A DNA stretch of 64,000 bases from Tubiluchus corallicola (lineage: Eukaryota; Animalia; Priapulida): assembly GCA_030141605.1 (NCBI GenBank), contig JAQGDQ010000015.1:1178001-1242000 (forward strand), read 5' to 3'. Position 1 is the stretch's first letter; each line of letters starts with the position of its first letter. Position numbers and translations under genes: made by a program. Shown one piece after another: positions 1,069 through 4,000 of this stretch. Under the pieces are notes generated by a model. The model did not search any database and had not been told where the DNA came from. It saw only the letters and a list, made by a program, of their open reading frames with translations.

Positions 1069-4000
1069 CTGGAAAAAAATCAAGTATCCTTATTATCCTT
1101 TTTCAAATCATTGCAGTTCTGATGGCACAGCTTTGGGAATACCCAATTTGATTCAAACAGCAGCATCGATGTAACTGAACTTACAATTTCACCTATGACT
1201 ATAATCACATCAATCTCTATTTGCAAGTAGTATTGAGAAAATAAACATAAAGTTTAACCCTATGGCCTATGGACTCTAATAAGTATTTTGTTTCAAAAAA
1301 TAATTTTTCCCATAGATTTAGCTTACTATTATAGACTTATTTGTGGACACAATGTTGCAGAATTTTTCTTTGTCTGTTTTGTGAAAAATGAGATTGCCAT
1401 CAATGACATAATGTTTGTTAGAGCCAAACGGTGGATGGGTAAGTCACTAGCACACAAAATGAAAATGTGATCCATGCAAATATTTGCACAACAAAGTGCT
1501 TGTACAGAGACTTTCTAACATTTTAATTTTATGGACATAAAGAATATAATCCTCCAAATCTAATATCAAAATCTGGATATGCTACAAAAAAGAAACACAC
1601 ATTATGATGCATATAAAATGACTAAGTTCATGCAAAAGAAAATGCACATCAAGAAAAATTTACAAATTCTGTAGATCCCTGCAAAATTTACAACACTGGA
1701 AGAATGTACAATTTGTGCACATCACCATAGAATGTAAAATCATCAAGGGGATTTACAAATTTTGTAGATCAGTATAACACGTACATCATTAAACAGAAAT
1801 TTACAGTTTTGTAAATCACCAAAAAATGTGCAATCATCAAGAGAGTTTACAAATTTTGTAGACCAACACAATGTACAAGCATTAAGAGAAATCTGTAAGT
1901 ATTGTAAATCCTCTTGAAAAAGAAAAAGAAGAGTGAAAACTCACCCCCTTGCTGGTCCAGCTTTACAAGTGTTTTGACACCAGCTTCTTGGGCCTAATAA
2001 AACAAATGGCCATGCAATGATGAACAAAACATAAGAACCATGACAGGAACCCAACAGCAAGCAGATACAAGAAAAAACACACAGGACAATTTGCTTGGGT
2101 CAGCCACGTGAATTCTACTGTTTTCTTTATTAACTTACTACAAGTTTTCTTTTATCAGAGATATTTAGAGACATAGTCCAAAACACAACATTTACACATT
2201 TAGCGAACACTAAATTACAGCAGGTGCAGTTTTGGAATTAATTTTTTGATATTAAGAAATATTGACGTATCAATTAACAAAAACATTAAAAACATTTTTG
2301 CATTTTGAATCACCACCGAAACAATTATTTTTATGGTTCTGTTTTAGAAAGGGATGCTTTGTAAAATTACGTAGACTGCTTTGCAAAAAAACAGGCAAAT
2401 CTTTGTGGGTGTCTGTGTGTTTTTTGTGCAGAAAAGTAACATTCGTGCATAACACCCCAATATTCATGCACACAAACAAGCATGCAAGAAGAACATTTGG
2501 TCGAAGATACCTCCTTGTTCATCCAGCATGACAAGTGTCCTGATGCCTGCATCTTTGGACTAAATAAATACAGAAGTTCATTAAAGTATGTTTTAAACTG
2601 GGTTTTTACTTGACACACACTCATATGTGTGGCTCATGCTTCAATTTAAGCATTAGTTATTGTTGCAGTAAAGAGATTTATTCAATTTTGTTGTTGTTGC
2701 TGGCAGTCATAGCATGTGCCATTTGTTGGTGTTGTAGTGTTGATAAATGACCAATAATTTATGCAGGTCACAGTTGTCACCACTGAAATAAAATCATAAA
2801 TATGCAATACCATCATAGAAGTGACTGGCCTATAGAACTTATGGGATTTCACATTGTACAGATAATAAATTTGCATTCAATGAGCTAATACTGGAACACT
2901 AAGTTAACCTGCAACACACTGGAACTTTGTCAGTTGTTACACACATTAAACAGGTTCACTTTAGGTTAAATTTTGTGTGAGTGAGAGAAACCTTTTTAGT
3001 CTTTTTCATCTGGCCATTAAACACTATTTAATAGCAAAATAAATAAACACATACCTGTTGCATCTCAATTTGGTCATTATAAAATAAACTAAAGCAGCAT
3101 TGGTCAAGGTCTTGGTTTGCTCTGATTAATGGACTGGATCAGTTTCTTTCTGTTCTAGATGTGGGTGTGGCTGTGGCTCAGTCTGGTCTTGTCAGTGACT
3201 GGTCTGTCTGGAGTCCAATTTCCATGTCTAGTGCCTGGTATGTTTGAGATGTAATTTATCAGTTGTCTGGCCTGTGCCTGGTCTGTCTGGGGTCTGGTCT
3301 GTTTAGATCTGGTTTTTCATAGGCCTGTTCTGACTGGGCTCTGGTCTGTCTAAGTCTGCTGTTCAGAGGTCTGATCTAACAGAGGTCTTCTGGTAAATCA
3401 GACTGTTGAAGACCAGACATCAGACGGACCAGTCATAAACAGATTTCTGAAGACGAGACCAGGCACACACCAAACCACTATAAATTACATCTCTGACAGA
3501 CCAGGCCCTTGACATGTCAGCCAAAGACCAGATCCCAGGCAAACCAGCCAAAACCAATCTGCTCATAGATTGGAGTTGAACTCCAGACAGACCAGCCACA
3601 GACAAAACCAGACTGAGCCACGGCCAGACCCACATCTAGAACAGAAGGAAACTGGCCCAAATTAGAGTTAACCCAGACCAAGAGAAGGCCTACCCACAGT
3701 CCACAACCAACCTTTCAATAATTTGTTATATAATGATGAATTATGTAATTTGTTACTCAATGCTGCGTTGTCACCTAATGAACCTTAGCATTCTTGCGTA
3801 AAGTAGAAAAGGGAAATATGATGACTCCACATACACACAGAGCTCAAAACCAAAACAAAGTATCAGCACTACTCCATGAATAACTGAATTTCAAATATTT
3901 TCAAAAAAGTTTTAATTAATGTTTTGAGCATTTACAACTTTATCTGTGGAGCAAAATAGACAATGATTGTGGACAGCTTTTCAACCAACCTGCAAAAACA

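Follow-up and report, generated by a model that had tools for sequence, protein, structure and literature searches.

The stretch analyzed here, a 64-kb window of the Tubiluchus corallicola genome, carries on its minus strand the upstream part of a SNAP-25 gene in which exon 4 is present twice, together with several neighboring genes. The features to which we refer below are as follows.

24050-23953, minus strand: putative SNAP-25 exon 2, ATG at 24027, ending in phase 0 (assigned by sequence and homology).
19612..19782, minus strand: candidate alternative first coding exon in intron 2, ATG at 19782 or 19752, with a phase-0 gtaagt donor.
5123-5082, minus strand: SNAP-25 exon 3, 42 nt, phase 0 to 0.
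2559-2511, minus strand: SNAP-25 exon 4a, the canonical K40/E52 form, 49 nt, phase 0 to 1, donor gag|gtatct.
1994..2510, minus strand: the 517-nt intron separating 4a and 4b.
1993-1945, minus strand: SNAP-25 exon 4b, the alternative Q40/K45/K49/Q52 form, 49 nt, phase 0 to 1, donor ggg|gtgagt.
1068-951, minus strand: SNAP-25 exon 5, 118 nt, which completes the first SNARE helix and encodes the cysteine cluster.
62656-63915, minus strand: FAM69/DIPK1-like gene, a single frame of 420 codons.

The first SNARE helix with its zero-layer glutamine, followed by the cysteine cluster, places the gene in the SNAP-25 family (Qbc SNAREs), and the residue numbers used here match those of PDB SNAP-25 chains (1jth_A, residues 40-56). 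Two Priapulus caudatus SNAP-25 models match exon 5 at 95% and 93% identity, the highest values among the best 120 of 630 matches; the exons after exon 5, including the second helix, fall beyond the window edge. The FAM69/DIPK1-like gene has its best named match in P. caudatus (44%, 307 bits; the next scores 241 bits), and exons at 36705-37404 (plus strand), 48018-48497 (minus) and 59887-60381 (minus) resemble what we take to be protein phosphatase 5 (TPR repeats) and SEL1L. CRE and NRF1-like motifs lie side by side at 20037-20053, ~260 nt upstream of the frame at 19612..19782, in a CpG-rich region (o/e 1.1-1.16), and an open frame of this kind appears in 11.5% of 200 Markov shuffles. Gene models from hemichordates, sea stars, insects, tardigrades and Gordionus also include alternative N-termini joined to exon 3. 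The case for an alternative SNAP-25 first exon at this site is suggestive only.

The two 49-nt exons have the coordinates, splice sites, phases and peptides that the initial annotation gave them. Both 4a and 4b are preceded by AG and followed by GT, each codes for 16 residues plus a G, and the two are identical at 35 of 49 bases and 9 of 16 residues. When the whole 64-kb window was scanned in six frames with both peptides, the exons scored 78 and 77 and the next place 23, so that there is neither a third exon-4 copy in the window nor reason to see a chance match in either exon. With 4a or 4b alone, exon 3 is carried into exon 5 in frame. Joining exons 3-4a-4b-5 bore out the earlier claim that including both shifts the frame; reading by eye into the loose end of a probable transcript contig (run X2, described below), we found that after double inclusion a stop falls at codon five of exon 6, and inclusion of neither exon brings a stop inside exon 5. 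The pair therefore has the properties of a tandem mutually exclusive cluster: equal length and phase, intact splice sites, and non-productive double and zero inclusion. The 4b donor has the canonical base at each position from +1 to +6, and the upstream AG nearest the 4b acceptor is ~100 nt away, compared with 20-48 nt at the other three acceptors; regulated exons typically have long AG-free zones. As judged from sequence, 4b is likely to be a regulated alternative exon.

A docking-site/selector pairing was sought among the 25 longest of 83 inverted repeats, and none of these had an arm at 4a or 4b or brought the sequences surrounding them together in such a pairing. The long inverted repeats belong to a fold-back element at ~3120-3700 in intron 3 (91-nt arms, 87% complementary), which is probably a dispersed MITE-like repeat, since many contigs of run X1 have loose ends there. 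At window position 1242, in the intron before exon 5, X1 has a 21-nt insertion relative to the window, probably an allele.

Transcript evidence comes from run X2, a probable RNA run under the same species label with 13 Mb of contigs. One 610-nt contig (depth 119) has the joint 1068>2511, reads exon 3 in its loose end at 2559 and continues past exon 5 into the next coding exon; it represents the 3-4a-5 form without 4b. Beyond exon 5, its loose end, read by eye, contains the motif KDIEKSKE, which is present in both Priapulus models and absent from 12 other proteins compared. Of the splice junctions by which use of the two exons was to be judged, 2511>1068 is thus present, but none involving 4b was seen in this set of contigs. 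Because contigs drop minor forms, the lack of a 4b contig in one small probable RNA run (a 13-Mb contig set) does not imply that 4b is silent. Relative to the window, the X2 contig has 5 differences in the 118 bases of exon 5 and 1 in the 49 of 4a, and the four that are listed are at third codon positions; given these differences, the contig may come from another population or from a close paralogue. Exon 4b itself is covered by a contig of X1, with no exon difference listed, and X1 may be the source of the window.

Steric exclusion of neighboring exons, as described in PMC5740500, has as its criterion a spacer of <50 nt (PMC5740500). The 517-nt spacer between 4a and 4b is too long by this criterion, and steric exclusion was ruled out. 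Since it was, we propose that exclusivity would arise mainly from the frameshift and nonsense-mediated decay of double-inclusion products, together with regulated splice-site choice. Exon 4b would be spliced in some cells of the animal.

If 4b were instead a dead or dying duplicate whose splicing had been lost in Tubiluchus, the sole probable RNA contig would be expected to skip it, as it does. The same reading is favored by the failure to find a close 4b relative: a protein search with 4b and its in-frame intron tail gave none at E<=10 among 10 candidates, a weak search as a 16-residue match is near the detection limit, and the exact degenerate 4b DNA pattern had 0 metagenome matches, also a weak test. 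Nor is there such an isoform in the P. caudatus models. Against this, 4b has kept AG and GT, an open frame and all four of the residues that we take to be SNARE layer residues (G43, T46, L50 and Q53) at a nucleotide divergence of 29% from 4a. In 200,000 simulations of a neutral copy at the same divergence, which were conservative in allowing no indels, splice sites and frame survived in 17%, and splice sites, frame and the four layer residues in 0.6%. A dN/dS comparison, suggested by the initial annotation and made here pairwise on the 16 codons of 4a and 4b, with no close relative included, points in the same direction: the two exons differ at 7 of 11.5 synonymous sites and at 7 of 36.5 non-synonymous ones (pS 0.61, pN 0.19, Fisher p=0.008). 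Together with the canonical donor, this excess of synonymous change makes a dead duplicate very improbable. Exon 4b looks to have been kept by purifying selection, as judged from the pair; a recent loss of its use after long function is conceivable.

The duplication itself is old, since the flanks of the two exons do not truly align. Upstream flanks aligned no better than shuffles. The downstream flanks scored 32 against a null maximum of 31, and this similarity was rejected as an out-of-register, AT-rich match. Synonymous sites between 4a and 4b are near saturation.

The same swap is found in other animals. RefSeq SNAP-25 isoforms exchange exactly the 16-residue exon-4 segment in nine ambulacrarian species, namely three hemichordates (Ptychodera, Glandiceps and Saccoglossus) and six echinoderms (two Asterias, Patiria, Acanthaster and two Diadema species), and in several insects. 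Three exon-4 variants each are present in Apis, Dufourea, Colletes and Copidosoma, and two each in Lasioglossum, Hylaeus, Schistocerca and Zophobas. Examples of such isoform sets are the following.

Ptychodera flava: XP_070577776.1 and XP_070577778.1.
Asterias amurensis: X1 and X2.
Apis: X1, X2 and X6.
Copidosoma: X1-X3.

These RefSeq and UniRef isoforms are automatic annotations rather than functional studies. As in the Tubiluchus pair, the identical segment is swapped, residue 40 being K in one form and Q, H, E or S in the rest; they keep G43 and T46 (with one exception each), L50 and Q53. Unlike them, Tubiluchus 4b has A39, K49 and Q52, and its best match among 27 compared exons is 11/16. 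The last exon, coding for the end of the second SNARE helix, is also swapped in invertebrate models (P0121-P0153 and related), three or more versions being present in Ptychodera and Asterias, so that choices at the first exon, at exon 4 and at the last exon may be combined.

We also scanned metagenomes and recovered at least 45 loci with SNAP-25 sequence. Eleven have an intron-flanked exon 4, and six of the eleven (L009, L011, L038, L042, L043 and L044) have two or three tandem AG-49-GT copies; another four contain a lone K40 copy, with no further one ahead of exon 5, and in the last a variant copy lies at the edge of the contig. Among the loci listed, exon 4 is joined directly to exon 5 in 16, with a non-K40 exon in nine of these, and the other 18 are without exon 4. 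When the window is counted with the six multi-copy loci, K40 and I44 occur together in 7/7 first copies and neither occurs in 8/8 downstream copies, counts that leave out protein-derived rows, where the a/b labels were set by residue 40. By exon 5, the seven tandem loci represent about five distinct lineages. In L041 the downstream peptide of L043 is joined directly to the same exon 5, so that splicing of a downstream copy seems to take place in that lineage. Locus L042 has a second exon 3 and exon 4a beyond exon 5 (565-1371 and 5356-5532), suggesting a tandem SNAP-25 gene duplicate.

Only one exon-4 type each was found in the clusters of P. caudatus, Gordionus, Paramacrobiotus, Ciona, Tetranychus and lamprey. 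The two P. caudatus SNAP-25 models (P0006 and P0007, on different scaffolds, one model per gene) have K40-type exon 4 only; one has M49G and the other S39G. Our literature search, conducted mostly at the level of titles and abstracts, found no paper describing an invertebrate SNAP-25 exon-4 pair, and supplementary insect exon tables may list one. The statement in the initial annotation that no description was known thus holds for the papers searched, but the swap stands in the public gene models of many invertebrates. The exon-4 pair is real and conserved.

Whether the pairs go back to one duplication or to several was examined with trees built from the DNA of 15 genomic exons (48 nt), as 16 protein columns are too few. 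In the best 48-nt tree all first copies fall on one side of a branch with a support of 74/79, not starred. With codon positions 1+2, the first copies did not form a clade in the best tree, although that grouping was not rejected (p 0.46). A single ancient exon-4 duplication with later losses would explain the shared exon order and the K40/I44 split, and because of these we favor it, putting it at about two in three on the sequences at hand. The description of the switch as independently evolved is not supported, as the same swap is present in hemichordates, echinoderms, insects and metagenome loci, in the same order wherever order is visible.

The competing view is that 4b is a functional, mutually exclusive exon from a separate duplication in this lineage, its likeness to copies in other phyla reflecting convergence, at an exon prone to duplication, or a Q40 that is easily acquired or ancestral. 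In AU tests a window-specific duplication giving 4a and 4b as sisters was not rejected (p 0.07 with 48 nt, 0.32 with positions 1+2), and by plain identity 4b is about as near to the first copies elsewhere (9-11/16) as to the downstream ones (8-10/16). Two further points fit a separate origin: K49 occurs together with Q52 in only one other listed copy, the middle copy of L009, and some lineages have a single exon-4 copy. Such an origin would nonetheless have to reproduce the order and the K40/I44 split common to all seven loci from about five distinct lineages, and it sits poorly with near-saturated synonymous sites, unalignable flanks and the division of first from downstream copies in the best 48-nt tree. 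We consider it unlikely, and favor descent of the pair from the ancient duplication.

In the coiled-coil core of 4b, the layer residues G43, T46, L50 and Q53 are kept, as the initial annotation had stated, and since they are, the 4b protein would still zip into the SNARE bundle. M49, previously listed as a surface residue, presumably occupies heptad position g; as it flanks the core, it is not plainly a surface residue.

The primary synaptotagmin interface of SNAP-25 is described as comprising K40, D51, E52, E55, Q56 and D166 (PMC8967716, PMC9258623), and a synaptotagmin-blocking peptide is given as residues 37-53 (PMC8967716), to which the exon-4 segment is nearly equal. Exon 4b substitutes two of the synaptotagmin contacts (K40Q and E52Q), and retains contacts L47, V48 and D51. 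Of the four interface residues named previously, K40, D51 and E52 do lie in the swapped segment, but the E55 codon spans the exon 4/5 junction, and E55 and Q56 are the same in both forms. The central proposal of the initial annotation, that two mutually exclusive copies of exon 4 recode the interface helix, is supported by the contig with 4a alone, the signature of purifying selection and the overlap with residues 37-53 as reported (PMC8967716).

Published work on this surface indicates what 4b might do. Interface mutants in neurons are reported to raise spontaneous release and to desynchronize evoked release (PMC10911398), and replacement of SNAP-25 by SNAP-23 in neurons to result in asynchronous, Syt7-driven release (PMC4244210). 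According to the accounts in PMC8967716 and PMC9258623, SNAP-23 differs at K40Q, L47I and V48T and Ca2+-triggered fusion with Syt2 persists. Since SNAP-23 supports Ca2+-triggered fusion despite K40Q, the term constitutive, as first applied to 4b, is too strong, and altered coupling is likelier. With K40 and E52 lost and L47, V48 and D51 retained, we would expect a looser Syt1-type primary interface, which could lead to more spontaneous or asynchronous release or to the use of another synaptotagmin partner, and 4b would probably be at work in non-neuronal or neurosecretory cells. The likeliest prediction is that 4b yields a SNAP-25 that remains fusion-competent and is not calcium-blind, its coupling to the sensor being looser or redirected.

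It is also possible that 4b serves mainly as a poison exon, a use for which double inclusion, with its shifted frame and stop at the fifth codon of exon 6, would be suited, or that it alters something besides synaptotagmin coupling, such as bundle stability, or contacts with Munc13/Munc18, alpha-SNAP or tomosyn by way of M49K and I44V. Retention of D51, L47 and V48 and the constancy of E55 and Q56 are compatible with a role away from the synaptotagmin interface. A poison exon, however, has no need to preserve a protein-level pattern, and every downstream copy lacks K40, which is among the listed residues of the primary interface. We regard these alternatives as improbable, though marginally less so than a dead duplicate. 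Collectively, our results suggest, with a probability of roughly 0.7, that the two tandem exon-4 copies are used as mutually exclusive alternatives descended from one ancient duplication and that 4b confers weaker or redirected synaptotagmin coupling.

The swapped exon very nearly coincides with the synaptotagmin-binding helix, and for this reason invertebrates provide naturally occurring variants of the calcium-trigger interface, kept by selection, within a protein that is otherwise the same. The Tubiluchus instance adds an early-branching ecdysozoan and supports an old origin. As public annotations of many species already include this swap, the locus contributes a taxon and one new variant (K49 with Q52) rather than a new system.

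Compared to the vertebrate SNAP-25a/b pair, which is described as having arisen in bony fish (PMC2581893), the Tubiluchus pair is similar in that a tandem, mutually exclusive exon lies in the first SNARE helix. It differs in that, as the initial annotation had correctly pointed out, the vertebrate pair is of exon 5, not exon 4, altering the helix end and the cysteine cluster (PMC2581893), whereas the doubled exon of Tubiluchus precedes exon 5 and so does not belong with the vertebrate exon-5 pairs. The vertebrate SNAP-25 matches have one exon-4 type per protein, with K40.

SNAP-23 was compared through its three published interface changes only. Like 4b it has K40Q at the primary interface, but it is a separate gene and carries L47I and V48T where 4b keeps L47 and V48 (PMC8967716); conversely, 4b has E52Q, and E52 is not among the SNAP-23 interface changes listed in that source (PMC8967716). 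With one of the three substitutions, 4b cannot be called SNAP-23-like on this comparison. The L47I change of SNAP-23 is also found in hemichordate and other downstream copies, and the hemichordate copies have two of the three SNAP-23 changes (Q40 and I47), which hints at an ancestral SNAP-25/SNAP-23 division, but Q40 may simply be the ancestral state. We put forward, as a tentative and rather improbable proposal, that in the last common ancestor of bilaterians a single SNAP-25 gene supplied two plasma-membrane SNAREs by an exon-4 switch, one neuronal (K40) and one for general secretion (Q40). If true, this switch would pick a cell's synaptotagmin and hence its release kinetics; priapulids, arthropods, ambulacrarians and others would have kept it, and vertebrates would have divided the exons between two genes, SNAP-25 with 4a and SNAP-23 with 4b.
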